Below the pieces are notes generated by a model that was not told where the DNA came from, did not search any database, and was given only the letters and a program-made list of their open reading frames with translations. Source: Clostridia bacterium (GTDB lineage Bacteria; Bacillota; Clostridia; UBA1212). Taken from it: 43,803 nucleotides of DNA. The position numbers were made by a program, and so were the translations under genes. The DNA is taken from contig JAZPZG010000077.1 of NCBI GenBank assembly GCA_045544575.1, positions 1 to 43,803 on the forward strand, read 5' to 3'. Shown piece after piece: positions 7,122 through 43,803 of the stretch; within the stretch, counting starts at the first letter, position 1; each line of letters begins with the position of its first letter.

Positions 7122-7127
7122 ATAGTC

Positions 7128-9059: not shown

Positions 9060-9084
9060 TACATGATAAACAGGAGGTAAAATT

Positions 9085-9498: not shown

Positions 9499-9525
9499 AA
9501 AGATTAAGCTAAAGGTAAAAGCACT

Positions 9526-10427: not shown

Positions 10428-10445
10428 TGGGGGGCAAATTTATAA

Positions 10446-12302: not shown

Positions 12303-12320
12303 TTTGAAGGAGAAAATCAG

Positions 12321-13694: not shown

Positions 13695-13701
13695 AATTGC
13701 T

Positions 13702-16847: not shown

Positions 16848-16912
16848 AATTTAATTTTTAAATAAAGGTATTGACCCGATTGACGGGGCGTAAAGAAGAA
16901 GGAGATGTTACA

Positions 16913-19568: not shown

Positions 19569-19588
19569 TGTTGACAGAGGGTGACTGT

Positions 19589-20971: not shown

Positions 20972-21001
20972 TAAATATTTGATTTTATGAGGAAGATAAT
21001 T

Positions 21002-21607
21002 ATGAATAATACTTTTTTTAAGAAAATAGCGGCAACCGCTCTTTCTGCGGTAATGTGTCTGTCTCTTTTGGCCGGTTGCGGAAAGCCCGCGGATGAAACC
21101 CCCGATAATTCACCTTCTACCACCGAAGCTCCGGTGACTTCGCAGGGTAGTTTTTCAAAGGAAATGCTTGATATTACCGTAAACGGAAAAACCTTAAAGC
21201 TCGGAGAAAACGAGAGCAGACTTGAAGAGGTTTTCGGCGAGCCGCTTAACGTTGAAGAGGCGGTAAGCTGTATGTTTGACGGCTTTGACAAAACGTATAC
21301 CTTTGAGTCATGCACCGTTTTTACTTTTCCTGCAGAGGACGGAAGCGGAAACGTTATTGACGAGGTATGGTTTTCGGGAGATAACGTTCCTGAATTGATA
21401 AAGGGTATCGGTATCGGTTCGTCAAAGGCTGATGTTGTTAAGGTACTTGGTGACAAATATTTTATGCAGGGAGAGGCAATGATGGTATATAACGCAGAGA
21501 ACAGTGCGGAGAAGTACGACAGCCTTCCTATGCTCTATTTTATGATTGAGTCCGATACCGTGACGGGTATAGGCTACTGTGCGAATTTATATCACACGGA
21601 GGCATAA
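21002..21607 (+). CDS. Lipoprotein with tandem BamE/BLIP-like repeats
   Basis: Lipobox LAGC, S/T/P linker, repeated LG...EEVFGEP / IGSSKADVVKVLGD pattern. Confidence 0.75.
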   Translation: MNNTFFKKIAATALSAVMCLSLLAGCGKPADETPDNSPSTTEAPVTSQGSFSKEMLDITVNGKTLKLGENESRLEEVFGEPLNVEEAVSCMFDGFDKTYTFESCTVFTFPAEDGSGNVIDEVWFSGDNVPELIKGIGIGSSKADVVKVLGDKYFMQGEAMMVYNAENSAEKYDSLPMLYFMIESDTVTGIGYCANLYHTEA

Positions 21608-21638: not shown

Positions 21639-23090
21639 ATGGTTTTCAGCAGTCCCGTTTTTGTTTTTATATTTTTGCCTGCGGTGTTCTTTGCGGTCAC
21701 CGCAGTAATGCTGTGTGGAATAAAGTCCTCACTCCGTGTAAAAATTGCAAACGTGCTGTTGCTTTTTGCGAGCCTCTTTTTCTATGCGTGGGGAGAACCC
21801 CTGCTGATATTTTTGATGGTAGGGGTAACATTATTGTGTTACCTTTTTGCTCTTTTAACAGAGCGTTTTAAGGACAACCCCGTGAAAAAAAAGGCGGCGC
21901 TTATATGTGCCGTGGTATCTGCCTTGGGGATTCTGGTGTTTTTTAAGTATGCGGGCTTTTTGGCAGATATTTTTACCGATAAAACACTCAACGTTCCTCT
22001 TCCGTTGGGAATATCTTTTTATACGTTTCAGGCGCTGTCTTACGTGATAGACGTATACAACGGAAAGGCAACCGCAACAAAAAATTTCGGCAGAGTGCTT
22101 TTGTACGTGTCACTGTTTCCTCAATTGGTTGCAGGACCGATTGTAAAGTATTCCGACGTGGACGAGCAGTTGGTATGCAGAAACTTTAATATAGAAGAAG
22201 CGGCGCATGGTCTAAGGAGATTTATATGCGGTCTTGCAAAAAAGATGCTTATAGCAAACACCGTGGCGGTTGTGGCTGATGGTGTGTTTGCCCTTGGTAG
22301 TGCAGAGCTTACGGGTGCAAGTGCTTGGTGCGGAGCACTCGCATATCTTTTCCAGATTTATTTTGACTTTTCGGGATATTCCGATATGGCAATCGGCTTG
22401 GGCGCTATGTTCGGCTTCAAGTTCAATGAAAACTTTAATTATCCTTATTCTGCGACAAGTGTACAGGACTTTTGGCGCAGATGGCATATTTCCGTATCAT
22501 CTTGGTTTAAAGAATATTTATATTTCCCGTTGGGCGGAAACAGAAAAGGTCGTTTTCGTACGTGCGTGAATAAAATTATAGTATTTTTCTTTACGGGCCT
22601 TTGGCACGGTGCCGCATTTACGTTTATCGTGTGGGGCCTTTGGCACGGATTGTTTTTACTTTTGGAGGAATACCTGCCGAAGCTGAAAAAGCAACCGTCG
22701 TCTCGTTTTGTTAAAGGCTTACTGTGTGTCGTAAAATATATTTATACGATGACGGTTGTACTGTTTGGTTTTGTGATTTTCCGTGCGGAGTCTATGTCTC
22801 AGGCATTGACGTATATGGGTAAGATGATAACCGATATAGGTTCACTTCCGAGTGCTCTTGCTCCCGCTATGGTGTTTGTGGATGGGTATACCGTGGTCAT
22901 GTTTATTCTTGCGGCAGTACTTTCTTTCCCCGTTACAAGAAAAATTTGTGATATGGCAAGGAAAAAGGGTGAGCGAGCTGAGACCGTATGCGAGGTGTTA
23001 TCCTTTGCGGGTACGGTTTTGCTGTTTGGAGCGTGTGTGCTGAGTCTTGCGGCTTCGTCGTATAACCCGTTTATATACTTTAGATTTTAA
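21639..23090 (+). CDS. MBOAT O-acyltransferase (AlgI/DltB/PatA family)
   Basis: MVFSS, LPLGISFYTFQ, FPQLVAGPI, YFDFSGYSDMAIG, FWRRWHIS, GLWHGA (catalytic His), YNPFIYFRF. Confidence 0.95.
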   Translation: MVFSSPVFVFIFLPAVFFAVTAVMLCGIKSSLRVKIANVLLLFASLFFYAWGEPLLIFLMVGVTLLCYLFALLTERFKDNPVKKKAALICAVVSALGILVFFKYAGFLADIFTDKTLNVPLPLGISFYTFQALSYVIDVYNGKATATKNFGRVLLYVSLFPQLVAGPIVKYSDVDEQLVCRNFNIEEAAHGLRRFICGLAKKMLIANTVAVVADGVFALGSAELTGASAWCGALAYLFQIYFDFSGYSDMAIGLGAMFGFKFNENFNYPYSATSVQDFWRRWHISVSSWFKEYLYFPLGGNRKGRFRTCVNKIIVFFFTGLWHGAAFTFIVWGLWHGLFLLLEEYLPKLKKQPSSRFVKGLLCVVKYIYTMTVVLFGFVIFRAESMSQALTYMGKMITDIGSLPSALAPAMVFVDGYTVVMFILAAVLSFPVTRKICDMARKKGERAETVCEVLSFAGTVLLFGACVLSLAASSYNPFIYFRF

Positions 23091-23119
23091 ATTTGAGATT
23101 GCTAAGGAGGTGCAGCGGA

Positions 23120-24553
23120 ATGGAGAACCGTGTTTCAAAGAAAAAAATAATGTATGCGGTGTTTACTGTGTTTATAATGCTTGCCGCGGCACTGCCCTTT
23201 CTTGCAATGCCTTTTTATGAAAGCAGTGCCGCCGATGCGGAACAACGTGAGCTTGCGGAGTTCCCTGCGCTGATTGATGAGGACGGCTTTAACGGTAATA
23301 TCGGCAAAGATATAGAGGAGTGGTTTCAAGACCGCTTTGCATTCAGAAGTGAGCTTGTTAACGCCGGATCTGAAATAATGCTCGGTGCGTTTGCTTCCTC
23401 CTCTGAGGACAGTGTTATCTGCGGTAAGGACGGCTGGCTTTTTTATGCAGAAACGTTGGAGTCGTATTGCGGAACGAAGAAAATGAGTGCTGCAGAGCTT
23501 GGACGACTTGCAACGGTAATTCGCCTTGAACAACAGTTTTGTACTGACAGAGGCGTTGCTTACGTTTTTGCGGCTGCGCCCAATAAGAACTCCGTATATC
23601 CCGAATATATGCAACCTCAGTATATTTGCACCGAGAGCGAAACTGACCTCGAAAAGTTAAATTTTTTACTTTTGGACAGCGGTGTAAACGTTGCGGATCT
23701 TAAGAGTGCTCTGCTTGCGGAAAAAGACAAGGGCTTGCTTTATTATTATGCGGACAGCCATTGGAATCTTGCCGGAGCGACTGTTGCATACAGAGCCATA
23801 ATGGAGCGCGCAAAGGTGCAGAATGAGTTTTATTATGATTCTTACACTGATGCGGTTTATGAAAGTGCAGAGCGAGAGGGCGACCTTTTGAAAATGGTTT
23901 TGCCGCTTGACTGCGTTGTGAAAGAGAATTCGGTAAAAAGCAATATTCCCTGCAATTACAAATATGCGGGAAGGTTTAAAACTCTTGATGATATGAGTAT
24001 CAAAACTCAAAATAAATCTGCCAACGAGAAAAACGGCGAGCTGTTGATGTTCAGAGATTCATTCGGCAGAGCTCTTATTTCTCTGTTTTCCGAACAATTT
24101 GCTTCGGCGACCTACGTGAGGACAACTCCTTTTAACCTGTACGGAAATATTTCGGGTAAGAGGCTTGTTGTTCGTGAAATCGTAGAGAGAAATCTGGATA
24201 CGCTTTTGGAGAGAGCGCCTGTAGCGACTGCGCCTGTTACGGCAGGCGGGGTGATAATGTCATCACGTGCCGTGAACGTAAGCGATGCTTCGGTAATTGT
24301 TTCCGAAGCTTCGATGGCAGGCAAGCTTACCCATGTGTACGGATTTATTGAGCAGGAAAACGGCGGTAATGACAATTACCGTGTGTTTGCGTGCGTAGAC
24401 GGTGAATATTACGAGGGCTTTCCCGTGTATGAAAGTCTTCTTTGTGAAGAATACGGTGATTGCGGCGCAGACAGGGCAGGCTTTTCATTTTACTTTGAAA
24501 GCGACGTACTTGCCGAAGGTGAGTCTGTTGAGATTTATTATGCCGCAAAATAA
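23120..24553 (+). CDS. AlgJ/AlgX-like (DHHW) SGNH polysaccharide O-acetyltransferase
   Basis: N-terminal TM, GKDGWLFY, APNKNSVYPE, DSHWN (D-x-H) and RDSFG (catalytic Ser); directly after the MBOAT. Confidence 0.88.
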   Translation: MENRVSKKKIMYAVFTVFIMLAAALPFLAMPFYESSAADAEQRELAEFPALIDEDGFNGNIGKDIEEWFQDRFAFRSELVNAGSEIMLGAFASSSEDSVICGKDGWLFYAETLESYCGTKKMSAAELGRLATVIRLEQQFCTDRGVAYVFAAAPNKNSVYPEYMQPQYICTESETDLEKLNFLLLDSGVNVADLKSALLAEKDKGLLYYYADSHWNLAGATVAYRAIMERAKVQNEFYYDSYTDAVYESAEREGDLLKMVLPLDCVVKENSVKSNIPCNYKYAGRFKTLDDMSIKTQNKSANEKNGELLMFRDSFGRALISLFSEQFASATYVRTTPFNLYGNISGKRLVVREIVERNLDTLLERAPVATAPVTAGGVIMSSRAVNVSDASVIVSEASMAGKLTHVYGFIEQENGGNDNYRVFACVDGEYYEGFPVYESLLCEEYGDCGADRAGFSFYFESDVLAEGESVEIYYAAK

Positions 24554-30217: not shown

Positions 30218-32257
30218 ATGGGCGGAATTATTTTATTACTGTTCTATTTGGCGGCAGGCGTGATAATTGCCTCAATGCTTTTTGATGACGAAAGGACGTT
30301 AAAAAAGCTTTGGCTCGGCGGTGTCATGGGCGTGATGCTTTTGATGTGGTCGCACGTGCCATTTTCATTCTTTTTGGGCTTTACCGTGTGGTCGCACCTT
30401 TGCGGTGTTGCACTTACCGCTTTGATAGGCGTGGGTATATTTTTTCTTAAAGGGAAAAACTTACCTAAACTTGCAGGTTCTAAGACTGTCGGGAAAAAGA
30501 CGAACAAGCTTATTGCCGTAGAGGGTGTGTGGCCGCTTACGTTGAGCGAAAGGATTATGCTTATATGTACCGTGTCCTTGACGATTCTCGCGGGTGTTAT
30601 GCTTGCAAATCACACAATAGTTGAAATCAACGGTGCGTATTATACGGGACAGTGTACGTACGGTGACATGAACATGCATCTGGGCTTTGTTACCAGCATT
30701 GCAACCCAAGGGATGTTTCCGCCTACCTATAGTATAATTGCGGGAGAACCCCTTAACTATCCTTTCTTGTGTGATTCGGTTTCTTCATCGTTGTATCTTT
30801 TCGGTTCAAGTCTTCGCGTTGCATACATAGCTCCTGCCTTGACTGCTTTTGTTGCGGTATTCATGGGCTTTTGGTACCTTGCGGAGTCGATACTTAAAAA
30901 AGCGGGCAGAACGCTGCTTGCTTTCGTATTGTTTTTCTTTGACGGCGGTTTTGGAATTATTTATTTTCTGGACAACCTTAAAGGTGAGGACAAGTCGAAT
31001 TTTAAGCGAATTTTCGAGGCTTTTTACGAGACACCTACAAACTACGTCAATGACTTGCGTGATGCCGTAAATGCCGCAGGTGAGACGGTGCAGGTACAGA
31101 GCTATTCAAATATTCGTTGGACAAACGTTATTGCAGACATGCTTTTGCCTCAGAGAGCGACACTGTTCGGCTGGATGTGCCTCTTTGCAGTGCTCTATTT
31201 ACTCTACAATGCAGTGTTTAGCGGAAAGAAGCAAAACTACGTTGTGGCAGGCGTTATGGGTGGTTTAATGACCATGGTGCATACGCACTCATATTTTGCA
31301 CTCGGTATGATTGCAATTTGTTGGATTGTTTACAGCTGTATTAAGGAACGCTTCAATAAGGATATTATCGTTTCATGGCTAAAGTTCGGTGTTCCGGCTC
31401 TTGTGCTTTCCGTTCCGCAGCTGTTGTTCTGGACGTTTAATGCGGTAGGTGAGAGCTTTGTTCGCTTTACCTTTAACTGGGCAAACGTGTCGGATTCGTG
31501 GCTCTGGTTCTGGGTGAAGAACGTGGGCTTGGTATTTATATTGCTTCCGATTGCGTTTTTGCATGTTGACAAGGAGAAAAAGTGCATGTACAGCGGTGCG
31601 CTTCTCATTTTTGCGGTAAGTGAGCTTGTTTTGTTCCAACCCAATCCTTACGACAATATAAAGCTTTTCTTTATTTGGTATGTGTTTACGGTAATTATAG
31701 TTGCAGAATTTTTGGCGGATTGCTGGCATAAGCTCAAGGGCATAAAGGGAAGATCTCTTATTGCGGCGGTACTTATTTTTACATGTACCGTTTCGGGTGC
31801 ACTGACAATCGGCCGTGAGGTGGTTTCGGGTGTATATCAGACCGACGGCGATGCAAAATACGCTTATCAGCTTTATTCTGCGGCACAGGTGAAAAGTGCT
31901 GAGTTTATAAAGGAAAATACAGAGGCGGATGCAATATTCCTTTGCCATAATAACCACAACAATTCCATTTCCAGCCTTACGGGAAGAAATATTTATTGCG
32001 GCGCAGGTACGTTCCTTTATTATCACGGGGTGGGTTATCAGGAACGTCAGGCTCTCTTGAAGAAAATGCTTACCGATGCCGAGGCTTTTGAGGAAAACCG
32101 CGAGGCTGCCGGTATTGATTACGTGTTTATAGGCGACTACGAGCGCGGTAATTACGGAGACAGATTGATTTCTGCTCATCTTGATGCGAATTACAAAGTC
32201 ATTTACGATAATGACGGCATAAAGATATATGACGTACGAACCTCAGCGGGAAAATAA
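30218..32257 (+). CDS. Polytopic membrane protein, GT-C-fold glycosyltransferase-like
   Basis: About 13 hydrophobic segments, acidic first-loop motif YGDMNMH followed by PP...YPFL.D, soluble C-terminal domain (SLTGR...GIDYVFIG). Confidence 0.65.
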   Translation: MGGIILLLFYLAAGVIIASMLFDDERTLKKLWLGGVMGVMLLMWSHVPFSFFLGFTVWSHLCGVALTALIGVGIFFLKGKNLPKLAGSKTVGKKTNKLIAVEGVWPLTLSERIMLICTVSLTILAGVMLANHTIVEINGAYYTGQCTYGDMNMHLGFVTSIATQGMFPPTYSIIAGEPLNYPFLCDSVSSSLYLFGSSLRVAYIAPALTAFVAVFMGFWYLAESILKKAGRTLLAFVLFFFDGGFGIIYFLDNLKGEDKSNFKRIFEAFYETPTNYVNDLRDAVNAAGETVQVQSYSNIRWTNVIADMLLPQRATLFGWMCLFAVLYLLYNAVFSGKKQNYVVAGVMGGLMTMVHTHSYFALGMIAICWIVYSCIKERFNKDIIVSWLKFGVPALVLSVPQLLFWTFNAVGESFVRFTFNWANVSDSWLWFWVKNVGLVFILLPIAFLHVDKEKKCMYSGALLIFAVSELVLFQPNPYDNIKLFFIWYVFTVIIVAEFLADCWHKLKGIKGRSLIAAVLIFTCTVSGALTIGREVVSGVYQTDGDAKYAYQLYSAAQVKSAEFIKENTEADAIFLCHNNHNNSISSLTGRNIYCGAGTFLYYHGVGYQERQALLKKMLTDAEAFEENREAAGIDYVFIGDYERGNYGDRLISAHLDANYKVIYDNDGIKIYDVRTSAGK

Positions 32258-32693: not shown

Positions 32694-32734
32694 GTTGCTA
32701 AATAAACCCGGCAAGTGACATGGGAGGAGATATA

Positions 32735-35700
32735 ATGAAAGCGAAAAGAAATTGGACGAAAGGATTATTGAGACGCGTTACGAGCTTTGTGCTTGTGCTT
32801 GTGATGCTGCTTACGAGTGTTACTCTGCCTAAGATTAACTGGCAGAAGAGTAATGCTACGCAGATTGGCGGCACAGTAATGCCTGCGGAACCCGTATTTT
32901 CATGGGAGCCGAGCAGCGCGGATCCGGATCTTTCATACGTTCATTCCGGAAATATTGAGCTTAGAGGCTCTGATGACGGCGCCCTTATTATTAAGAATAC
33001 CAGCGGTACCGGTGTTACTATGGACACTGCGTACGGCACGGTTTTACAAGAGGGTACGTATGCCGATGTTAGCTCTAGCTATTTTGATCTTGCTGCTTCT
33101 TGGGGTCTTAACGAAGAAGAGAATTCCAAGGGATATATTGCGTGGTTCCATACGGGTCCCGACGGAATAGGCAGTTATAATAACGGTATAGCGACGACCG
33201 GCACCGGTGTAGGCGGAACCACCGTTGATTACAGCGGAATTGCAGACTATGACGAAGGTCTTATTTCTTTCAGCGGATTGATTAATGAAGGTAATGAACT
33301 TAACTGGATTCCTCCTCAATATTCCGATACTAACGGTACACGTTATGCATACTTCCTTGTTAAGTATAAGGCTGACGGATATACTCCCCGTATGCGTATA
33401 TGGGCGTACGGTGACCAGCGTGACAACAATGGCAACACATATCAGCAAAACAGAGTTTCTGATGAAGGTCTTACTGCATACAGAAGAAACAAAAATGAGA
33501 ATGAAGACGACGTTGTTTTCATAGAGCGTGATTTCCACGAGGGCGACGGTAATATCCAGTATCAGATTATATGGGTAGACGTAGTGCGTGCGGCAGGAGT
33601 TGCGGGTCGTGAGCTTGATAACTTTGCACTCGAAGTTAACGGTGCGGATGCAACGGACTTTGGTTGGAACGGACACCCTTCTACTGCAAGCAAAAGACAG
33701 ACCGAACTTATAAATAAGGATTTTTATCTCTACGGTATATACGGATTTAACTCCGAGAACGATGCCATTTCGTTTATGTACAGCGATATTCTCGGCGAGG
33801 ATGGTATTGTAGAGGATAACGTTCGTGCTACGAACATCATCAATGCACCCCAGAAGGTTGCAAAGGGCGACCTTGTTGCTTCTCATATCAATGAAGCTCT
33901 TCCCGGTGTTTGGGCAGAAAGAACCCCTTACAACTACGGCACCACGTCTGTTACCGAATATTGGGCGAAGAGTGAGCTGTATCAGTCTGTTCCTTATGTG
34001 CTCGAAAAGGGTGGCGACGGAATCTGGAATCATGACGTTCCCCACTTTGCCATGGGCGATGCGGGTTATCTTGAGACGACCAGATTTACGGCGAATACTC
34101 TTGGCTCACAGAGCTTCCGACTGAAATTGATGAATATTTCAGACGGCGGTACTGCAGAACTCTACCCCGGACATACACAGACAGGTTTCTTCGAGCTTAA
34201 TGCTCCTTTTGAGGTTGTTGAATATGCAAACAGCCCTTCTCTTCCCGACGTGCATACACGTTATGCAAACGGTCACGCATACTACGAGTATGATATGGAC
34301 TTTGCTTTCATGCTTGCTCAAGATGATGGCAACGGTCAACTTATCGACGATTGGAGTATTGACAACTATATCGTTTATAAGCACGGTGTTAACTCTATCG
34401 GAAAGCAGGTTGCAGAGGATGCTATCGATGCCCTTGAAGTTGTTCAGCCGTATTTCCACACTTCGAGAAATTCGATGACGTTTGATCTCGGTCCTGTTAT
34501 TTACGATGATTACGAGACCGTGACTTTCTACTATAATAATACGACAGGTACAGAGGCTACTTTTGAGCTCTATATCACGACGTATTACGACGATACGAAT
34601 TTGGACACTGTAGGTGCAGAAAAGAAATACACGAAGTCTGTTTCCGAGGGCGAAGGTAAAGTTACTTTCACTATTCCTAAGACTACTTTGGGCTACACTA
34701 AGTCCGAGGTTGTTCAGGACTTTGCTATCCGTGTTGTTACAAACGACAAGACTGCTGATGCTGCGGGCGATAAAGAGACCTACGTAGATATCACTAAGAT
34801 TGAATTCGCTGCTCGTCACGAGCTCAACGTTGACTTTAACAACGAAACTGACCGTGAAGACCATAACGCATGGGATTTCAACAACAAGGCTTTCGGTGTA
34901 AGCATTAACGGTGATGCTGTTCAGGGCGTTGCAAATGAGAACAACGGATACAGATTTGAACTGTATAACATTGCATGTGAAGCTTACTGCGATTACCTCG
35001 TTAACGGTGATACTATTACCGACGAGAACAAAATAGAAAAAGAAGAAATTAAGGTCTATGCTGTTCAGCAAAGTGACTATAATTTTGCTTACAATGTTTC
35101 CGGCTATACCACGAATAACGGTGTTAATATTATGGACGGAACCTTCGCTCAGGGTCAGCCTAATGCTGCAGGTCTGGGCCACGTAAACTATTCGTTCACG
35201 ATGCAAAAGGATACCGTAATCGATATCGATGTTGTTTGGGTTGACTATACAAATAACGTAACTGCAGGTATCGGCGAAATTAATTCAGACGGTACCGTAC
35301 AGACGTATATTCCTGCTCCTACTTCTTCTACAGAGTCTGTAGTATTGCAGGGATCTGATAATAATGCGGCATCGGGAACAAGCTCTGAGGTTCTTACCGA
35401 GGCAACATACACAAAAGATGCTTCCAAGGCGGCTTATTATGCTGACGGTACTATACACGTAGAGTTTGATCCTACTTTGGGATATATTGTTACCGATATC
35501 GTTCCTTATTTTGCAGATGCGAACGGTAATCTCCTCGAGGGATACGCTTCGCTCCAAAATCAGCCGGTAAGACTTGGTGCAAGTTCACTTACCTTTAATT
35601 TGGTTAAGAATACTATCATTCCTGAGGGTGCTGCAAAGATTGTAGTATATGCAAGAACTGCACAGGGTCTCAGCAATGGTATCGCAGTTGATCTCGCTTC

Positions 35701-38700
35701 AGGCTTCAAAACAGAAGCAGAGGCTTTTTCGGATGATGACTTGACTGCTGAATTCCAGGTGCTCAGTGATATCCATATCGTTAACCCTGACTACAGAAGC
35801 GAGATAGAGGCAACAGATATTGATGATTATTGGCATCATACGTATCCTAATTATCCGGAAAACGTTAACCCGTTTACAATTCATAATCAGAGATTCGAGA
35901 TGGCACTTCGTGATATTGCAGCAATGCAGTCAAGTAAGTCTATCGGTATTGTCGTAAACGGTGACGTTACTGAGCATAACCAGGCGTATGAATATACAGA
36001 GTGTGTTGAAATATACAACACAGTAAATGCTTCTGTCGGCGGTACGCTCAAGAACATGCTTTGGACTATAGGTAACCACGACTTTGGTCTTTATGCTAAC
36101 AGAGGTAACGGCCTTACCACAAATCACAAGAATTTGTCCGGTTCTGCCATCGGTGACTTCTACGTTAATTTGTTCTTGAATCAGATTGCCGCAGGCGGCT
36201 CTGCTGTCTATAACCCCGGTGTTTCGGGCATTCCGTATTACAGCATCAGTGCTAACGGATGTAAGTTTATTTACCTCGGAAGTGAGGAATATGACGAGAC
36301 TGGTGCTGTTGATGCTATTTTGTCACAGACTCAGCTTGACTGGCTCGCAAGAGAGATTGGTTCCACAGACAAGAATATGCCCGTATTCGTATTCTGCCAC
36401 CAGTCTATGTACAATACTGTTGCAGGTTCACTTCCCGGACAGGGTTGGGACGGTATAACAAATAATGCAGGTTTTGATGCAGGTACAGAGGATCGTCTTG
36501 CTGCTATTTTGGCAAGCCACCCCAATGCTATCTATTTTGCAGGTCACAGCCACTGGGATCTTAATTCCGAAGGCAACATGTATACACAGACAGACAATAT
36601 GTGTGACTCGTTTAATACGGCTTCTACTGCATACTTGTGGTCTACCTATGCAGGTGACACAGGTCACTATGTTGACGGCAGCCAAGGCTACTACGTATAT
36701 GTTTATTCAGATGGTACCGTTCTCGTTAAGGGTAGAGATTTTACTACTAATGAGTGGCTTCCTTCTGCTATGTACTGCGTAGAGCACAAGGACGGTTCTT
36801 CGCTTTCTGCGGACAGCTATGCAGGTTATGTTGACGGAACGACAAAGCTCTACACAAATAAGACTACTTTCTCTTATGGTGAGCCTATTGAGGTTATGTA
36901 TAATAACCAGGTAGCAAGCACACTTTCTAATAAGTGGATTGCGATATATGCATCCAGTGCTACCATTGGTACTAATGCTTGTAAGCAGTATGCATACATT
37001 AATTCCGGTACAGGATATATTACGTTTAATAATTTGCAGGGTGTTACAACCGATAGCGAGGCTGCAGCTTCATTGGGAACAGTAGAATATAATGATCCTA
37101 ATAGTTTTACACCGCTCGTCCCCGGCACTTATAGAATCGTAACGCTCGGTACAGACGCTAATGGCTATGCGTACGCAACAGATTCTGCGGAACTTTGGAT
37201 TACAGTCACCGACGACACGACTGCTGACTATGCAAATCGTTTGAGCGTAGGCGCATCTTCATACAATGTAAACGAGAATATAACGTTTAATTTCTCTCAG
37301 GTATATCATGGAACAAAAGCTGGAGATAATGCTGTTTGCTTGTGTATTTATACTGTTGGCGAAGATCCGACCGTGGATAACTCATACATGTATGCATATC
37401 CTTATATATGGGCAGGCGGAGGTGCTCCTTTTAACGGTTCTATTACAGTGCCTTGCAGCGGAAGCGGTACGGGAACGACCAATTTGAATTTTAATGATGG
37501 TAATAGTAAGCCCGGTGTTGGTTCTTACTATGCGGTGCTTATTAACCCCAGAGGAAGGACTTCTGATGATAAGCCTTACGGCAACTACGAGGAAGTTTCC
37601 AACAGAGTATACTTTGAGGTTACAAACAACAATACTTATTACAATACGCTTTATCAGGTAGGCGGAGCAACGGAATTTACTTCCGGCGAAGCTATAGAAC
37701 TTGGTTATGCTTCTTACGGTACACAAGCTGCATGGCTTGCTATATACGGTGAGAATGACGATCCTAACACTGTTACTGCATCTAAGCAGTATGTATATGT
37801 TACCGGTATATATAACACGATGGCATCCGGCACTGCAACGTTTAACGCATTGCCTGCAGGAAAATACTATGCACAGATTTTGGTTGGCGAGACGAAAGGT
37901 TCGTATGCCGCTTTGAGTGAAAAATTTGCGTTTAGTGTTCTTGATCGTGAGATTTCTATCTCCGGTGTTGACGAAGGTGCAGAGCTTGAATATTCCGAAG
38001 AACAATTGGATATCAGCTATACAGGCGCAGATTCCGGTGACTGGATAGGTATATTCAGAGACGGTGTTACCGATAAGAGCCTCGCGAATGCAGTACAGTA
38101 TGCTTTCATTGCAGGCGACGGAACTGTTGAGTTCTGTCATCCTACAAATGGTACCACCGCAAATTTGGATGCAAGTGCTGTTAATGGTGTGCATTTCAGT
38201 ACAGATGCTGTAGGAACTGTTTTAAGATTCCTTCCCGCAGGTAATTATTACGTGCAGGCATTTGACAGCGACAACGGCAATATAGCATTGTGTGATCCTA
38301 TTAACTTCAGTGTGAAGTTTGCTCTCGACAATATTACCGAAGGTCAGACTTTTGAGTACAGTGAAATGATTCCTGTATACTATTATGGAGCTGAATATGG
38401 TGATTGGTTGGGTGTTTTTGCAAACGGTGTTACAACCAAGAGTAAAGATGCTTCACTTCAGTACGCATGTGTTATAGGTAAAAATTATGTAAACTTCTGT
38501 CCCGACAAAGACGGAACGAGCGGTGATTTGACACCTGAGGCGGGCACCGGACCTTATTATCTGCACTTTGACGATGGTTTGAGATATCTCCCCGCAGGCA
38601 CCTACTACGTTCAGGCATTTGACAGCAATGGCAATGCTCTTTGTGATGCAATCAACTTTACTGTGAATGCGGCACCTACCGAGGAGCCTACAGCTGTTCC

Positions 38701-41700
38701 TACTGTAGCACCTACTGCAGAGCCTACTGAGGTTCCCGTAACGGCTGTACCTACAGCTACGCCTACTGTGGCACCTACTGCAGAGCCTACGGCTACACCC
38801 GTTATCTTTAAGGAAAACAACAGCGGCGTTACTGTAAAAGCGCCTACGGGTACTGATATTGACTCTTCAATGATTCTTAACGTTGAAGTTACGAATGACG
38901 TAACAATTCCTGCAGACAGCGAATTTGCATCATATACTGCAGTTGTTTATGACATATACTTCACAAAGGATGACAACAGAGTTTCCGTAGAGATTGAAAA
39001 CGGCACGGTTACCGTAACAATTCCTGTTCCGACAGGAATGAATGGCAAAAAGTGTAAGGTAGTACATATCAGCAATGACGGCATGACTGTTACTGATATG
39101 AACGCATCTTATGACGGAATGGGCAACATGACCTTTACGACAAAACACTTTAGCTATTACGCAGTAATTGAAGCTGCCGCATCCCTTAACGAGGCGGCAT
39201 ACTGGAATCAGAACGGTCACTACTACGTAACTGCTGACTCCGTAACGGTTTATACCGATGCTTTGGACGGTACGATTCTTCAGAAATACGTTACGGCTGA
39301 GGATGGCACTGAGTCGTTGGTTAATATGACCATTGCGAAGAACGAGATGTTCTCCGTTACTGAAACCAGGAAGATCGAAGAAGGCGACTATATCGGTATT
39401 TACGGTAAGGTTACTGTTTTTGACGGCAAGAGTACAACCACAGGTTGGATCAAGCTTGCAAAGACAGACGTTACACCTGTTGAGTACGAAACAGACACCG
39501 ATTGGGGTATGGGCTTTACGAATGACGTTTACTATCAGCCGTTTGAAAATCTTCCTGTCGGAAAGTATTTTGATCTAACCGGTACAATCATTCCTAATTT
39601 TAAAGAAGATACCGGCGCATTCACACCGAATGGAGCTAATTCCAATGATTATATTATGTTGGATCACAAAGGTGCGTTTGGTTCATTTTACGGTCAAGAT
39701 AATGTAAACGTTAACAGTGGCTATCAGTCAAATGACCATGAGTTGGCATACAAACGAGTTGGCAATACCGTTATCTCTACTTTCTATACAGACAGAAGCA
39801 ATCCGTACTACGGTGTGGCAGGATTCTCCTTCCAGTTCCGATATGATTGGGCATCGAGCTACGGTATGGCTATTCGTCCTATTACCGATAAAAACCAGGA
39901 CGTTAAGGGTACTTGGGATCCGGATGGTTACTATCCCGATCTGTTGACAATCGAACATGATCCCGGCGATACTACTTCCGGTAAGGCGTACCTGTTTGTA
40001 AATGATGAAAGCGGTACCGGAAAGATTGCCAGTGGTCGTCCTATGCTTCGAACTATTGAGTTTGAAAAGGGCAGAGACTATACCATTACCGTGATTATGA
40101 CCGCAGGAAGCTCAGACTATACTGTGGTTGTTGATGGTAAGGTTATAGGTACGTACACATATTCTGCAAATCTCAACAATGCAGGAACCATAACGACTGT
40201 AACTCCTCACGAGTACCTGAGAGGATTCTCCATGTTTATGCATGGTTTCTGGGAAGATGCTACTCGTGGTTCTGACAAGATGTACTTTGATAACTTTGTT
40301 GTCGGTGAAATCGAAAACATTGAAAAAGACGTTTTGGTTAATACTCAGGGACACCAGACCGAGTTTATTGTTGATGACTTGATTCAGATAACGTATGACG
40401 GTACGGAGATAGGCAACTGGATTGCTGTTTACAGATACGACGCAACTACCGGAAAGTTCTATTCACCTGACGGTACAACGGAGATTATTCCTAACTTTGA
40501 CAACTGTGCACAGCGTGCATACACGGAAGACGGAAAGAACTTTGCTTACTTTAACCGTCATTGGGATGAACTGGGCGGTGGTTCTACGTTTGACTGCGGA
40601 TGGCATCCTGGAAATCAATCCACACGTGACTCCGTATGGTACAATGGTTACGGTTGTATTTCGTTGTTGCCCAAAGACATATACGGCGACGCTTGTGACT
40701 ATGCTATCCTTGTGTTTAATGCGGGTGGCAGCATTATAAGTGAAGAACTTGTATTCTGCACGGTATCGGGCTCTTGTCCTCATATCGATATACCTGAAAA
40801 TGTATATGTAAAGGGTGAGCAGATTCCCGTAAGCTATGCATGGGCAGATGCAAACTCAAAGATCATTTTGAAGGATGAGAATGGAAACGTTATTATGGAT
40901 CCCGTTATTTCTTTTGACGTACGTTCAAAAGTGGGAACCGTTATCCTGGATACAGAGAATCTTATTCCGGGTATGACATATCGACTTGTAGGTGTATGTG
41001 AAGATGCAAACGAAAATCTGGTCGAAACAGGATACAAGGAGTTTGAGATTCGTAATCCTATCTTGGCTATTTCCGGAATTGAAGGAAACACCGTATCAGA
41101 GGATGAGATATTCAATCTTGAGTACTATCGCCAGTACGGTGAAGCGGGAGACGTTTATGCTTCCGACACGTATTACCTTGCAATCTTTAATAAGAATGCA
41201 ACAAGTAAAAAACTCGCAAATGCATTGCAGTATGCTTTGATAGAAAATATTGCTCTGGACCAAATAAATGTGGAATACGCTATCGAGTATAACAAGTATG
41301 CAACAACTCTTGAGGGTAAGTTTGCAATTACAGGCGTTATCGGTGAGGTAATCTACAATGAAACTGATGGTTTGAGACTTCCTGTGGGCGATTACTTTGC
41401 AATCATTACCGATAAAGACGGTAGTACGCTTTCAAAGGAAATGTTCTTCTCTGTTACAACTAACAACAGTGCAAACATTGCTGACAGCGATAATGAGTAC
41501 GCATACGGCGAAAAAGTAAACGTTTCTTACACCGGCGGAGATGTTGGTACGTATCTTGCTATCTTCAACGCTGACTTTACAGGAGACTTTACAAAGGAAA
41601 ATGCAATTCAGTTTGCTCCTCTCTTCGGTAACAGCACTGTAGGCTTTAATACCGATATGATTACAACACATCCTGACATCAGAGACATGGTTGGCTTTAC

Positions 41701-43552
41701 AGAGATTCCTGCAGAGTACCTGCCTTACGGTGACTACGTAGTTAAAATGATTGACGGTGAGACGGGTGAAGCTCTTACAGATAAGGGCGGAAATGTAATT
41801 ACTGTTGCGTTCTCCGTTGTTGCAGAAGAGGTATCAATTGAGTCCGACGAAGGCATATGGAACGCTATACCCGGTAAGGTAACTATCACTATTGATAATG
41901 ACGACTCCACTTCCGGAGTAACACCTTACGGATCTATCAAGACCTTTGTTGCTGAGGCTAATATAGGTTACTCATTTGTTGGCTGGTATGAGCTTAACAA
42001 TGACGGTTCTGTTAAGTGCCTTGTAAGTAAGGATGCAAAGTATACTGTTGAGAATATTTATGTGGCTAATACGAAGATTTTTGCAATCTTTGTTAAGAAT
42101 GCGGATAAGGCAAATCTTTACTACGTGGATTTTGTAAACGATGCAAATCAGGTAGTTCAGTCGATTCCTGCAATCGAAGGCGGCAGTGTAAATATGGCAG
42201 AGCTTTCCTACAACAGGCCTATCAAGGTTGGTTATACGTTTAACGGCTGGACAGTCGAGAACTATGATGCGAAGAACGTTACTAAGTATTTCTACTATGT
42301 GACAAATGAAAGCGGTGAATACGTTCTCGATGAAAACGGTGAAAGAACGATAGTTGTTCTGGATAGCGAGGAAGCTGCGATAGCACAGGCAATGACGTTT
42401 ATTGATGAAGCAAAGGCTGAGGCTGAAGCGAGCGGCGAGGCAGTAGCACCTGAGAAGGTATACGCTCTTATTGAGCTTGCAGGCAAGAGCTATGATGTTC
42501 TTTATGCATACACATACTATGCAGATGCTGAAGAGCCTTACGGAGAGTGGACGATTCACTCTTTGATTAACGTAAGCGCTAACATTACTGTAAAAGCTTC
42601 TTGGAAGGCGGCAAGCGGTACAGGTGCAACTACTCCTGCGGTTGTTGATGTTATTGCATACAATGACAGCGGTGAACAAGTAACCGGCAGCTTTGAACGT
42701 CCTATCAATGCAAGCGTGTACGTTACTACACCCGCTGCTTTGGACGGAAAGACCTTTGTAGGTTGGGTAGATATGAGTAAGCCCGCAAGACAGAGCTACG
42801 TTGTAAATAACGATGCTGTTGAGCTTACAGAGGGCGAGACTTCTGCTGATGAAGCTGTTAAGATCTACTCTAACGGAACTGTTAAGGTGGGCAACTACTA
42901 TTATCCGATATTGAGCTACAATGCGAAATATTCTTTCAGAGTTGTAGGTCATATGGAACTGAGAGCTGTTTACACATCGGGTACGTTTGATGTGACAACG
43001 ACTAAGCCTGCAGTGACGATTTCCGAGTATGCACAGTATTCGTTGCGTGCAAACGAGAAGGTAAATATTGCCTTTAATGCAATTGTTACTCTTCCTGCTG
43101 ACGGCTCGAAGTACGAATTTGTAGATTTTGGATATTTGCTCTACGTATCCGGAAGTGATGATGTGAAACCTATTACTAACTTCTACGATATCGATGGTAA
43201 TATGACTGCTGCAGATTTCCTCTCTCTTAATACTGAGAGCGGTAACGGAGGTACGTTCAAGAAGCTTTCCATTAATACAAACAATAATGCCGGTCAGTTC
43301 TTCGGTAACGTAACCACTAAGATGATAGACGGAAAGACACTTTACGTGAAGCCTTACGTGATTTACGTGAACTCCGACACAACTGCTGAAAATAGTAACT
43401 GGACAATTTCTTACGGTAATGCTATAATGATAGACGCTTCTGTTATAACGGCTGATTGTGATGCTATAAATGTCACTGCAGGCGGAAAGATTAAGCATTA
43501 CGAAGAAACTCAATTGACAGCGGGCGATTGCGTAAATTACGCTGCTCAATAA
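32735..43552 (+). CDS. Giant secreted multidomain protein (3605 aa): metallophosphoesterase, Ig-like repeats, PT linker, HFS domain, SH3-like, LamG-like and InlB-B/Flg_new-like repeats
   Basis: GGAGGAG RBS; signal peptide ending SNA; intact phosphoesterase motifs SDIH, NGD, GNHD, CHQ, GHSH (~35750-36780); GY(S/T)F.GW repeats near the C-terminus. Confidence 0.9.
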   Translation: MKAKRNWTKGLLRRVTSFVLVLVMLLTSVTLPKINWQKSNATQIGGTVMPAEPVFSWEPSSADPDLSYVHSGNIELRGSDDGALIIKNTSGTGVTMDTAYGTVLQEGTYADVSSSYFDLAASWGLNEEENSKGYIAWFHTGPDGIGSYNNGIATTGTGVGGTTVDYSGIADYDEGLISFSGLINEGNELNWIPPQYSDTNGTRYAYFLVKYKADGYTPRMRIWAYGDQRDNNGNTYQQNRVSDEGLTAYRRNKNENEDDVVFIERDFHEGDGNIQYQIIWVDVVRAAGVAGRELDNFALEVNGADATDFGWNGHPSTASKRQTELINKDFYLYGIYGFNSENDAISFMYSDILGEDGIVEDNVRATNIINAPQKVAKGDLVASHINEALPGVWAERTPYNYGTTSVTEYWAKSELYQSVPYVLEKGGDGIWNHDVPHFAMGDAGYLETTRFTANTLGSQSFRLKLMNISDGGTAELYPGHTQTGFFELNAPFEVVEYANSPSLPDVHTRYANGHAYYEYDMDFAFMLAQDDGNGQLIDDWSIDNYIVYKHGVNSIGKQVAEDAIDALEVVQPYFHTSRNSMTFDLGPVIYDDYETVTFYYNNTTGTEATFELYITTYYDDTNLDTVGAEKKYTKSVSEGEGKVTFTIPKTTLGYTKSEVVQDFAIRVVTNDKTADAAGDKETYVDITKIEFAARHELNVDFNNETDREDHNAWDFNNKAFGVSINGDAVQGVANENNGYRFELYNIACEAYCDYLVNGDTITDENKIEKEEIKVYAVQQSDYNFAYNVSGYTTNNGVNIMDGTFAQGQPNAAGLGHVNYSFTMQKDTVIDIDVVWVDYTNNVTAGIGEINSDGTVQTYIPAPTSSTESVVLQGSDNNAASGTSSEVLTEATYTKDASKAAYYADGTIHVEFDPTLGYIVTDIVPYFADANGNLLEGYASLQNQPVRLGASSLTFNLVKNTIIPEGAAKIVVYARTAQGLSNGIAVDLASGFKTEAEAFSDDDLTAEFQVLSDIHIVNPDYRSEIEATDIDDYWHHTYPNYPENVNPFTIHNQRFEMALRDIAAMQSSKSIGIVVNGDVTEHNQAYEYTECVEIYNTVNASVGGTLKNMLWTIGNHDFGLYANRGNGLTTNHKNLSGSAIGDFYVNLFLNQIAAGGSAVYNPGVSGIPYYSISANGCKFIYLGSEEYDETGAVDAILSQTQLDWLAREIGSTDKNMPVFVFCHQSMYNTVAGSLPGQGWDGITNNAGFDAGTEDRLAAILASHPNAIYFAGHSHWDLNSEGNMYTQTDNMCDSFNTASTAYLWSTYAGDTGHYVDGSQGYYVYVYSDGTVLVKGRDFTTNEWLPSAMYCVEHKDGSSLSADSYAGYVDGTTKLYTNKTTFSYGEPIEVMYNNQVASTLSNKWIAIYASSATIGTNACKQYAYINSGTGYITFNNLQGVTTDSEAAASLGTVEYNDPNSFTPLVPGTYRIVTLGTDANGYAYATDSAELWITVTDDTTADYANRLSVGASSYNVNENITFNFSQVYHGTKAGDNAVCLCIYTVGEDPTVDNSYMYAYPYIWAGGGAPFNGSITVPCSGSGTGTTNLNFNDGNSKPGVGSYYAVLINPRGRTSDDKPYGNYEEVSNRVYFEVTNNNTYYNTLYQVGGATEFTSGEAIELGYASYGTQAAWLAIYGENDDPNTVTASKQYVYVTGIYNTMASGTATFNALPAGKYYAQILVGETKGSYAALSEKFAFSVLDREISISGVDEGAELEYSEEQLDISYTGADSGDWIGIFRDGVTDKSLANAVQYAFIAGDGTVEFCHPTNGTTANLDASAVNGVHFSTDAVGTVLRFLPAGNYYVQAFDSDNGNIALCDPINFSVKFALDNITEGQTFEYSEMIPVYYYGAEYGDWLGVFANGVTTKSKDASLQYACVIGKNYVNFCPDKDGTSGDLTPEAGTGPYYLHFDDGLRYLPAGTYYVQAFDSNGNALCDAINFTVNAAPTEEPTAVPTVAPTAEPTEVPVTAVPTATPTVAPTAEPTATPVIFKENNSGVTVKAPTGTDIDSSMILNVEVTNDVTIPADSEFASYTAVVYDIYFTKDDNRVSVEIENGTVTVTIPVPTGMNGKKCKVVHISNDGMTVTDMNASYDGMGNMTFTTKHFSYYAVIEAAASLNEAAYWNQNGHYYVTADSVTVYTDALDGTILQKYVTAEDGTESLVNMTIAKNEMFSVTETRKIEEGDYIGIYGKVTVFDGKSTTTGWIKLAKTDVTPVEYETDTDWGMGFTNDVYYQPFENLPVGKYFDLTGTIIPNFKEDTGAFTPNGANSNDYIMLDHKGAFGSFYGQDNVNVNSGYQSNDHELAYKRVGNTVISTFYTDRSNPYYGVAGFSFQFRYDWASSYGMAIRPITDKNQDVKGTWDPDGYYPDLLTIEHDPGDTTSGKAYLFVNDESGTGKIASGRPMLRTIEFEKGRDYTITVIMTAGSSDYTVVVDGKVIGTYTYSANLNNAGTITTVTPHEYLRGFSMFMHGFWEDATRGSDKMYFDNFVVGEIENIEKDVLVNTQGHQTEFIVDDLIQITYDGTEIGNWIAVYRYDATTGKFYSPDGTTEIIPNFDNCAQRAYTEDGKNFAYFNRHWDELGGGSTFDCGWHPGNQSTRDSVWYNGYGCISLLPKDIYGDACDYAILVFNAGGSIISEELVFCTVSGSCPHIDIPENVYVKGEQIPVSYAWADANSKIILKDENGNVIMDPVISFDVRSKVGTVILDTENLIPGMTYRLVGVCEDANENLVETGYKEFEIRNPILAISGIEGNTVSEDEIFNLEYYRQYGEAGDVYASDTYYLAIFNKNATSKKLANALQYALIENIALDQINVEYAIEYNKYATTLEGKFAITGVIGEVIYNETDGLRLPVGDYFAIITDKDGSTLSKEMFFSVTTNNSANIADSDNEYAYGEKVNVSYTGGDVGTYLAIFNADFTGDFTKENAIQFAPLFGNSTVGFNTDMITTHPDIRDMVGFTEIPAEYLPYGDYVVKMIDGETGEALTDKGGNVITVAFSVVAEEVSIESDEGIWNAIPGKVTITIDNDDSTSGVTPYGSIKTFVAEANIGYSFVGWYELNNDGSVKCLVSKDAKYTVENIYVANTKIFAIFVKNADKANLYYVDFVNDANQVVQSIPAIEGGSVNMAELSYNRPIKVGYTFNGWTVENYDAKNVTKYFYYVTNESGEYVLDENGERTIVVLDSEEAAIAQAMTFIDEAKAEAEASGEAVAPEKVYALIELAGKSYDVLYAYTYYADAEEPYGEWTIHSLINVSANITVKASWKAASGTGATTPAVVDVIAYNDSGEQVTGSFERPINASVYVTTPAALDGKTFVGWVDMSKPARQSYVVNNDAVELTEGETSADEAVKIYSNGTVKVGNYYYPILSYNAKYSFRVVGHMELRAVYTSGTFDVTTTKPAVTISEYAQYSLRANEKVNIAFNAIVTLPADGSKYEFVDFGYLLYVSGSDDVKPITNFYDIDGNMTAADFLSLNTESGNGGTFKKLSINTNNNAGQFFGNVTTKMIDGKTLYVKPYVIYVNSDTTAENSNWTISYGNAIMIDASVITADCDAINVTAGGKIKHYEETQLTAGDCVNYAAQ
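38669..38800 (+). repeat. Pro/Thr-rich linker built from degenerate 12-bp (xPTx) repeats
   Basis: APTEEPTAVPTVAPTAEPTEVPVTAVPTATPTVAPTAEPTATP; near-identical 29-bp copies at 38699-38727 and 38762-38790 (1 mismatch). Confidence 0.9.
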
Positions 43553-43571
43553 GCGGAAAGGAGTTGCTATA

Positions 43572-43727
43572 ATGAAAAAGGTATTTGTCGAGCCTGAAAT
43601 AGAGATAGTATCCTTTGAGGCTTTGGATAAAATCGGAGCTGTATCCTATACTGATACAGGTGAAGGTTGGGGAGACGGCGGAACTTCCGACAGTGTGCCC
43701 GGCGGCGGTACAGAAATAGAAATATAA
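43572..43727 (+). CDS. Unannotated 51-aa peptide MKKVFVEPEIEIVSFEALDKIGAVSYTDTGEGWGDGGTSDSVPGGGTEIEI, RiPP-precursor-like leader
   Basis: GAAAGGAG RBS; starts 19 nt after the giant gene's stop; followed by a terminator; MKK.F..PEIEIV.F leader pattern. Confidence 0.8.
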   Translation: MKKVFVEPEIEIVSFEALDKIGAVSYTDTGEGWGDGGTSDSVPGGGTEIEI

Positions 43728-43754
43728 AGTCGCCATCTTCATTATGAAGTTAAC

Positions 43755-43795
43755 TGCAACAGACCGAGGCGTATGCCTCCGGCTGTTGTATTTTT
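43755..43795 (+). terminator. Intrinsic terminator closing the giant-protein/peptide unit
   Basis: TGCAACAG-ACCGAGGC-GTAT-GCCTCCGG-CTGTTGTA imperfect stem followed by TTTTT. Confidence 0.8.
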
Positions 43796-43803
43796 AAGTT
43801 CTG

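Follow-up and report, generated by a model that had tools for sequence, protein, structure and literature searches.

The last few hundred nucleotides of contig JAZPZG010000077.1, from the draft genome of a Clostridia bacterium of lineage UBA1212 (NCBI GenBank assembly GCA_045544575.1), raise the question of what a gene for only 51 amino acids is doing directly behind a giant gene for a secreted protein. The window analysed here is that entire contig (C77, 43,803 nucleotides); the source genome, G000, amounts to 1.35 Mb in 87 contigs and is about 62% complete, G001 is a genome of the same genus, and other G numbers denote sampled genomes of the order or class. An earlier sequence-only reading had taken the small open reading frame (ORF) for part of an undescribed system joining a peptide to a surface protein. 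The analysis presented here indicates that the ORF probably encodes a precursor of the linear polyphosphorylated peptide (LPP) type, that is, the precursor of a peptide made on the ribosome and modified after translation (RiPP), encoded in trans, apart from its enzymes. This reading is founded on the peptide family, the adjacency of its members to an enzyme cassette in other genomes, the co-occurrence of peptides and enzymes, the enzymes present in G000 and the published LPP gene set. The parts of the gene, in window coordinates, are as follows.

43556..43564, plus strand: ribosome-binding site, GGAAAGGAG, 7 nt upstream of the ATG
43572..43727, plus strand: precursor-peptide ORF of 51 amino acids, stop included in the coordinates; probable LppA-like precursor of a Clostridial family
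43572..43637, plus strand: leader region, residues 1-22, with an F5-x-x-P8 motif (43584-43595), E11, F15 and D19; its end is placed at G22 by family alignment
43638..43724, plus strand: predicted core, residues 23-51, rich in G, S, T, D and E and ending in EIEI; the family-variable part
43644..43646, plus strand: codon of Ser25, candidate phosphorylation site assigned by analogy with LppA

The translation of the ORF is MKKVFVEPEIEIVSFEALDKIGAVSYTDTGEGWGDGGTSDSVPGGGTEIEI. As the sequence-only reading had observed, the stretch EIEI occurs twice (residues 9-12 and 48-51) and the peptide carries no signal-peptide hydrophobic core, its longest hydrophobic run being no more than 3 residues. At related loci GGAGG-like sites precede the peptide ATG. 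The homologue in G001 has 55 amino acids, is 64% identical over residues 1-46 and likewise stands directly behind the orthologue of the giant gene, and across the first 24 codons of the two genes 10 codons differ synonymously and 5 non-synonymously. A relative detected in run X4, a related strain or species (90-95% similar), has six small insertions within window positions 43640-43658 that sum to 12 nt and leave the frame intact, so that tail length differs among close relatives. Judged from this pattern of sequence conservation the ORF is a real gene and not a chance frame, because a homologue is in place in G001, synonymous differences are in excess, the leader belongs to a family spread over many genomes and the insertions in X4 preserve the frame. 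The RNA data consist of three metatranscriptome runs of one study, in which portions of 42600-43803 are uncovered at a depth of about 3; among their contigs, one of 219 nt spans 43468-43686 with 4 differences, bridging the giant stop and the peptide start.

A Clostridial family of short leader peptides

The peptide matched no family of Pfam or NCBIfam at E values up to 10, and 29 aligned members of its family gave none either, apart from one spurious match per library at E 0.13. A word-indexed protein search with the peptide returned the window's own protein as sole candidate (1/1), and an exhaustive HMMER search of 1.84 billion representatives found four proteins at E of 0.001 or better, namely the peptide itself and three long proteins (606-1574 amino acids), each of which was matched in several short stretches. 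Small ORFs of this kind are evidently rarely called in protein databases. The family was gathered by six-frame searches of 46 genomes of the order and 399 sampled genomes of the class. A profile built from 9 peptides identified 63 short open frames in 22 of the 46 order genomes, with up to 10 per genome, and a profile built from 29 peptides reached E 1e-4 or better in 39 of the 399 class genomes, again with up to 10 copies each. The search of small ORFs in related genomes with a hidden Markov model of the leader, which the sequence-only reading had proposed as a check, thus had a family to find, and over the fetched loci it yielded 77 unique peptides. G000 itself has only one detected member, and so does G001.

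Conservation among the 77 unique peptides is concentrated in the leader and at the junction that follows it: Y or F at column 5 (76 peptides), P8 (57), E11 (55), F15 (63), D19 (68), T22 (62) and S24 (74), giving the consensus [YF]xxPx[ILV]E[IV][IV]xFxxED[VI]ITxS. Behind the conserved serine, tail length ranges from 6 to about 45 residues; the tails abound in G, D and E, often close with a short acidic-aromatic motif, and end in F, V, L, I, G, D or other residues. One member of the family, in G065 (L158, C52, 7387-9217, minus strand), has a Cys-rich tail, and a radical-SAM gene lies between this peptide and the genes for a recognition protein and a kinase; this locus may represent a hybrid pathway with a second kind of modification.

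The enzyme cassette and its link to the peptides

The sequence-only reading had noted that the window holds no maturation enzymes, which is confirmed, and had proposed that the machinery, containing a RiPP recognition element (RRE), is encoded elsewhere. The remainder of G000 does contain such machinery, divided between contigs C62 and C13.

C62 6799-7503: HprK-like P-loop kinase, with Walker A and N-D-D-K-P motifs
C62 7534-7800: PqqD-type recognition protein, PF05402 at 42.9 bits versus a cut-off of 23.4
C62 7809-8306: signal-peptidase-like protease, with G-x-S-M-x-P, H and G-D boxes
C13 1214-2440, minus strand: NTP_transf_5 enzyme, PF14907 at 97.4 bits versus a cut-off of 31.2

The three C62 genes (6799-8306) come after a kinase-rsgA-rpe stretch. 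Across the order and class the cassette consists of an HprK-like kinase (235-250 amino acids), a PqqD-type recognition protein (about 88), a SipW-type signal-peptidase-like protease (150-170) and an NTP_transf_5 enzyme, sometimes joined by an ABC exporter. PqqD genes occur in 33 and NTP_transf_5 genes in 35 of the 46 order genomes, often side by side; NTP_transf_5 is adjacent to the cassette or fused in G017, G031, G033 and G244, the fusion in G031 being to the peptidase. Residues S43, H84 and D99 of the peptidase-like protein are invariant in all seven aligned proteins, and its matches to signal peptidase I models are weak (TIGR02228 at 28.3 bits versus a cut-off of 51.85; PDB entry 4nv4 at E 0.0015). 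The kinase-like protein reaches the cut-off of no sequence family among those searched (Pfam, NCBIfam, PDB profile): its NCBIfam contacts are only with HprK-related and ScmC models (29.2 bits versus 125 and 17.9 versus 200), a PDB sequence search with the kinase profile gave P-loop noise only (E of at least 0.11), and a contig search with the single G000 kinase as query found no relative. Its AlphaFold2 model (pLDDT 91.1) is matched best by Foldseek to ATP-PEPCK (E 2.4e-6) and to HprK/P (1kkl_B, E 1.3e-5). Kinase-like genes are present in 150 of the 399 sampled class genomes. The kinase-like profile also matches, at model positions of about 70-238 and E 1e-43 to 1e-55, a second group of frames of roughly 290-300 amino acids in many class genomes, which looks like a paralogous family.

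Members of the peptide family stand directly upstream of the cassette in at least 9 genomes. The order in G017 is a 738-amino-acid secreted protein, the peptide, the kinase-like protein, PqqD, the peptidase-like protein and NTP_transf_5, and that in G009 is an 811-amino-acid secreted protein, three tandem peptides, the kinase-like protein, PqqD and the peptidase-like protein. Coordinates place a peptide no more than 2 kb upstream of the kinase-like gene, and on its strand, in G244, G130, G216, G065, G362, G302 and G236. In G244 the arrangement is complete, the peptide being followed in turn by kinase, PqqD, peptidase, an exporter of the ABC type (ABC_membrane and ABC_tran) and NTP transferase; the exporter lies inside the cluster in G244 and G130, and the precursor gene does so in G017, G009, G244, G130, G059, G216 and G065. 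Among 20 kinase loci that were fetched, kinase, recognition protein and peptidase stood together in 7, kinase and recognition protein alone in 3, and a family peptide just upstream of the kinase in 5. In G000 no family peptide was found near the cassette genes of C62 or C13, the peptide being on C77.

The distribution of peptides and enzymes over genomes was the subject of a second check proposed by the sequence-only reading. A kinase-like match is present in 38 of 39 peptide-positive class genomes as against 112 of 360 peptide-negative ones, and a PqqD match in 21 of 22 peptide-positive order genomes as against 12 of 24; the related genomes in these counts are not independent of one another. 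That reading had also proposed to look for co-occurrence with the C-terminal domain of the giant protein; the upstream C-terminal domains proved unrelated, those of G000 and G001 forming a separate pair. A complex prediction of the G000 PqqD protein with the peptide, likewise proposed there, scored 0.43, the best of three controls scoring 0.00. Of 157 solved complexes 116 reach the mark applied, as do 2 of 215 mismatches; at scores of 0.60 or less, only 18 of the 157 do so, together with the two mismatched pairs. The runs had no less than 91% of their contacts in common, with a partner pLDDT of at least 51. The model thus lends weak support to the pairing of recognition protein and peptide, and since solved complexes of recognition proteins with leaders exist, its pass may reflect likeness to them. 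The enzymes on C62 and C13, together with the peptides that front the cassette in other genomes, support the proposal that this precursor is served by machinery encoded elsewhere.

LPP and lasso pathways compared

The closest described parallel is the pathway for LPPs, reported from the lppAKBSDN cluster of Paenibacillus alginolyticus DSM5050 (Popov et al., Nat Commun 2026; PMC13381572). According to the main text of that paper, the gene set codes for LppS (an SpI-like peptidase), LppB (a discrete recognition protein), LppK (an HprK-like kinase), LppN (an NTP transferase) and LppD (an MsbA-like exporter), and the precursors have 35-200 amino acids with a conserved N-terminus and a variable C-terminus. 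A [Y/W]xxP motif is bound by the recognition proteins of both lasso and LPP pathways. In a heterologous host LppS cleaves after T-1 and requires LppB for this, LppK adds up to four phosphates to Ser3 of the core, and no activity of LppN was seen; as to the role of LPPs, the authors offer only a guess at biofilms in their discussion (PMC13381572).

The Clostridial cassette contains an enzyme set identical in kind to this one, including the leader peptidase of Ser/His/Asp, SipW or archaeal type and the NTP transferase, and the sequence-only reading's description of the system as undescribed did not survive the comparison (PMC13381572). The gene order of G244 is that of lppAKBSDN, an MsbA-type exporter is part of the clusters of some relatives, and S43, H84 and D99 of the peptidase-like protein parallel the mutated LppS residues S29, H68 and D93. 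The precursors share a conserved N-terminal [Y/F]xxP, a Thr and a Ser at the junction and a variable C-terminus, and no lasso protease accompanies them; in G000 the motif reads F5-V-E-P8, by sequence a Phe in place of the Tyr of [Y/W]xxP (PMC13381572). The two systems differ in layout. Published precursors are one to three genes within the cluster, in capsule loci of Bacilli (PMC13381572), whereas the Clostridial ones number up to 10 per genome, most of them at a distance from the cassette, and follow large secreted-protein genes. In G000 the precursor gene is outside the cluster (C77 versus C62), and the cassette itself is split, with the equivalents of K, B and S on C62 and that of N on C13 and with no exporter beside it. 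The main text of the paper makes no mention of Clostridia, of surface or secreted proteins or of orphan precursors, and as far as the literature searches show, neither the Clostridial precursor family nor its number of copies, its placement in trans or the genes next to it have been published.

By analogy with the pathway of this relative from the Bacillus class, from whose literature leader binding, cleavage dependent on the recognition protein and polyphosphorylation of serine are carried over, a course of maturation can be proposed. A leader of some 22-25 residues, with F-x-x-P and the beta-strand-like E-I-E-I-V-S-F, would be bound by the PqqD-type protein of C62, which would present the peptide to the adjacent HprK-like kinase for phosphorylation of the serine just behind the leader, probably Ser25, and to the SipW-type Ser/His/Asp protease for removal of the leader. 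The NTP_transf_5 enzyme of C13 may further decorate the phosphate, and the resulting linear, acidic phosphopeptide, some 26-29 residues long and rich in G, S, T and D, may leave the cell through one of the ABC exporters of the genome. For G000, processing of this particular copy, the exact sites of cleavage and phosphorylation, export and any role of the giant protein would at most be inferred.

Several observations weigh against an LPP-type assignment. The published leader, YxxPxVLxHQxIxFETxxS, is not matched by the family consensus (PMC13381572), and the spacings from Y to F, Y to T and Y to S, judged by eye, are 10, 17 and 19 in the family and 13, 15 and 18 in published LPPs. Supplementary Data 1 of the same paper places Clostridial pairs of peptidase and recognition protein under 'RRE others' and not under 'LPP RRE'; examples of these pairs, whose precursors were not determined there, are from Anaerocolumna, Desulfosporosinus, Dehalobacter, Lachnoclostridium and a Ruminococcus not in culture, and fall in clusters 4, 9 and 20 of the network (PMC13381572); their recognition proteins resemble, by eye, the PqqD protein of G000. 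Ten of the 20 fetched kinase loci, some of them at contig ends, have neither recognition protein nor peptidase beside the kinase, and 112 of the 360 class genomes with no detected peptide are kinase-positive all the same. The G000 cassette is without an adjacent exporter and transferase in a genome only 62% complete, and none of the seven ABC_membrane genes that G000 has elsewhere could be assigned to it. The RNA-library contig gives neither strand, level nor translation, and DNA contamination is a possible source of it. The last of these points concerns the junction of leader and core, where G000 reads I21-G22-A23-V24-S25 as against the family consensus I-T-x-S: column 22 is Thr in 62 of the 77 peptides and G22 in G000, and column 24 is Ser in 74 and V24 in G000, with Ser25 one position on. 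G001 has G at position 24 and its next serine about ten residues later, so that both genomes clearly depart from the family at its most conserved site, where one other row has a gap, and the two copies may undergo different processing or none.

The extreme form of this last possibility is that the G000 copy is a decaying or non-functional relic, no longer processed after the loss of its Thr22/Ser24 site. G000 and G001 do supply two of the only three unique peptides among the 77 that are without Ser in column 24, G001 is without any nearby serine, and each genome has a single detected copy. A relic would hardly be expected to show what is otherwise seen here: the leader has been kept between species (10 synonymous and 5 non-synonymous differences), ribosome-binding site, frame and terminator are intact in both genomes, the insertions and deletions of the relative in X4 preserve the frame, and the cassette is intact in G000 and G001. 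The serine of G000, moreover, lies one position on and at +3 from the predicted cut, which is the published spacing of LppA; if the leader ends at G22, Ser25 would probably be the phosphorylation site at +3, as Ser3 is in LppA. We therefore regard a relic as unlikely, and because the leader is conserved, the signals are intact and the cassette is intact, the gene appears to be in use.

The sequence-only reading had likened the leader to those bound in lasso-type pathways, and its view of the leader stands, the N-terminus being a lasso-type [Y/F]xxP leader; a lasso pathway is not supported. For the peptide to be a lasso precursor cyclised by a cyclase encoded elsewhere is very improbable. The leader pattern M-K-K-x-[YFW]-x-x-P-x-[LIV]-E does resemble the M-K-K-x-W-x-x-P-x-L-E pattern of predicted Firmicutes lasso leaders (Table 3 of PMC7533575), and the NCBIfam models nearest to the recognition protein are lasso PqqD chaperones, matched below their cut-offs. 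The lasso B2 protease (PF13471) nevertheless passes its cut-off in none of the 46 order genomes, two sub-threshold matches being to long unrelated frames, and no cyclase-like gene was annotated in the cassette loci, where no search aimed at a cyclase family was made. In the family, the part that follows the conserved serine may have as few as 6 residues (G130), with several members at 6-10, too short for a ring of 7-9 residues and a threaded tail; the G000 tail is long enough for both, and the argument from length holds at the level of the family only.

A likeness to phosphorylated lasso peptides is retained under the LPP-type reading. In the paeninodin and pseudomycoidin type, PsmK phosphorylates the C-terminal serine and PsmN is needed for the addition of hexose (Zyubko et al., 2019; PMC6993621). 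Shared with these are an HprK-family kinase acting on a precursor serine, an uncharacterised NTP transferase, PqqD-type recognition and a [Y/W]xxP leader, and the differences are that the Clostridial system has no B2 cysteine protease and no macrolactam cyclase seen in the annotated cassettes, that a serine protease is predicted to remove the leader, and that the conserved serine lies right behind the leader instead of at the C-terminus (PMC6993621).

The pairing of an HprK-related P-loop protein with a PqqD-family chaperone is also a feature of the HPr-rel-A and SynChlorMet systems (TIGR04352 HprK_rel_A, TIGR04353 PqqD_rel_X, TIGR04249 ScmC), but the matches are far below curated cut-offs and hence do not indicate membership; neither system is known to have a signal-peptidase-like protease. 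Three further candidates were rejected: a double-glycine leader of the PCAT kind, for which the spacing is unsuitable; an immunity protein of a polymorphic toxin, for which the conserved part would not be expected in the peptide with the variable part in the upstream C-termini, the reverse of the usual arrangement; and a ribosome-arrest peptide, since the gene is downstream, not upstream, of the secreted-protein gene.

Probable precursor genes behind secreted-protein genes

The immediate surroundings of the peptide gene bear on how it is expressed and on what its product might do.

32720..43552, plus strand: giant gene for a secreted protein of 3610 amino acids, stop TAA at 43550-43552; upstream neighbour of the peptide gene
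43400..43428, plus strand: promoter-like site, TGGACA, 17 nt, TATAAT, with TG before the latter; inside the giant gene at its 3' end, 144 nt upstream of the peptide ATG
43755..43795, plus strand: intrinsic terminator, hairpin 43755-43790 followed by UUUUU

The sequence and its ORFs bear out the layout of a giant gene, a gap of 19 nt (43553-43571) from its stop to the peptide ATG, a strong ribosome-binding site and the 51-amino-acid ORF, as well as the terminator said to close the unit, whose hairpin, with the U run after it, has a folding energy of -26.1 kcal/mol (z -4.45, a stability equalled by none of 200 shuffles); a simple terminator scan of the window did not list this hairpin, and G001 has a terminator at the equivalent place. 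The giant protein has a single hydrophobic segment, at its N-terminus (signal or anchor), and no other in the sequence, in agreement with the earlier description of it as secreted and without a C-terminal anchor. Its one Pfam contact is a weak Metallophos match (residues 1014-1279), and it is 37% identical to its G001 orthologue across the last 590 amino acids.

Co-transcription of the two genes, claimed by the sequence-only reading, is plausible in that the RNA-library contig bridges their junction, while in both G000 and G001 a promoter-like site shortly before the peptide gene may allow separate initiation. The site at 43400-43428 may be the peptide gene's own predicted promoter; it is the best of 26 consensus matches in the window, a number not above chance, as shuffles give a mean of 26.3. 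The site in G001 is TTGACA-18-TATAAT, a 12/12 match to consensus (L009 10651-10680) that ends 20 nt before the peptide ATG. Both sites fall within the last codons of the giant genes. Transcription of the peptide gene may start at a separate promoter in addition to reading through from the giant gene.

A position behind a gene for a large secreted protein is characteristic of the family as a whole. A same-strand ORF ends within 60 nt of the peptide ATG in 22 of 29 order loci and 22 of 26 class loci. A script applied to 46 loci, whose pattern recognised the peptide in 37 and missed it in 9 (the window and G001 among them) and from which 3 further, false hits were dropped, gave 33 loci at which the complete upstream ORF was readable; 29 of these ORFs start with a hydrophobic signal-like segment, and 21 combine such a start with a length of at least 600 amino acids and an end within 60 nt. 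As background, 245 of the 821 ORFs of G000 with at least 200 amino acids have a signal-like N-terminus and 47 of the 821 are also at least 600 amino acids long. Even where the peptide adjoins the cassette it is preceded by a secreted protein (G017, G009, G244, G130 and G059).

The upstream proteins are themselves of several kinds. In 20 of 40 they share a C-terminal region of about 250 amino acids made of two copies of a module (one BLAST cluster; L098 6879-7628, L017 9184-9933 and 16 other loci aligned), which ends Y-S-x-x-S-Y ... L-V-x-A-x-x-x-Y-G-x-A-A-x-x-Y and has no Pfam family among the 18 members scanned (best E 0.0078). The giant C-termini of G000 and G001 form a pair of their own, the comparison of the giant protein's last 300 amino acids with the shared module giving a profile-comparison probability of 0.1%. 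Being anchorless, which was considered as a trait that might set the upstream proteins apart, is unsupported as such (1/25 versus 9/77). Because the upstream C-termini are unrelated and the lack of an anchor is not distinctive, the strong positional association is with large secreted-protein genes in general. In G038 (L014, C6) two paralogous secreted proteins, 84% identical over 477 amino acids, are encoded at 8030-9952 and 10046-11758; the first has a beta-rich C-terminal domain and a peptide behind it, the second a C-terminal membrane helix and no peptide behind it, and the peptide ORF (9970-10095) lies between them, overlapping the listed start of the second.

This association invites the explanation, advanced by the sequence-only reading, that giant protein and peptide are structural partners in direct contact, the peptide serving as anchor, donated beta-strand or covalent tag, with or without the cassette. 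The conserved position (22 of 29 and 22 of 26 loci), the high share of upstream ORFs that are signal-like (29 of 33) or that are also long and close by (21, against 47 of 821 long, signal-like ORFs in G000), the secreted protein that still precedes the peptide beside the cassette, and the restriction of the peptide in G038 to the beta-rich paralogue and not the membrane-helix one would all be understandable on this account. It nonetheless appears quite improbable: the peptide has no export signal and its supposed partners have Sec-type signals, the upstream C-terminal domains are unrelated (20 of 40 in one cluster, G000 and G001 a separate pair, 0.1%), the lack of an anchor is not distinctive, and G000 has one detected family peptide for 77 signal-bearing, non-polytopic ORFs of at least 400 amino acids. 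The role of anchor, strand partner or tag is supported by no result.

Other features of the window and of related loci can be recorded here. A V/A-type ATPase operon occupies 5702-14328 (subunits C/AC39, I, c, E, A, B and D); ORFs of 679, 468, 206 and 249 amino acids at 30218-32254, 19565-21604 and 16871-17617 have no Pfam family at E 1e-5; and a pair encoding an MBOAT acyltransferase and an AlgX/DHHW-type SGNH protein lies at 21639-24550. A like MBOAT/SGNH pair, followed by an FkbH-like gene, comes directly after a kinase-RRE-peptidase-transferase cassette in G033 (L104, C20, 9614-12388). The rpoB gene lies shortly downstream of the pair of surface protein and peptide in G001 (L009 11620-19350), G038 (L014 13100-17141) and G033 (L016 13090-16137), with rpoC too in G001 and G038, and C77 of G000 probably breaks just before rpoB.

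For annotation, the meaning of these results is that the small ORF is a probable RiPP precursor and does not stand for a novel type of system. The description of the LPP pathway, in 2026, came from Bacilli, and the present family supplies candidate precursors for orphan Clostridial cassettes (PMC13381572); given kinase-like genes in 150 of 399 sampled genomes, many gut and rumen Clostridia may carry an LPP-like system. The placement of precursors behind genes for large secreted proteins, many per genome and away from the enzymes, is itself a lead to function. One rather speculative idea, which we hold to be doubtful, is that Clostridial LPP-type phosphopeptides are companions of secreted surface proteins, each precursor being expressed with a particular exoprotein and the exported phosphorylated, perhaps glycosylated, peptide acting on that protein outside the cell; such action might, as equally conjectural examples, tether the exoprotein to the wall or matrix or mark which surface proteins are made. 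Were it true, this would be the first concrete function for the LPP family.

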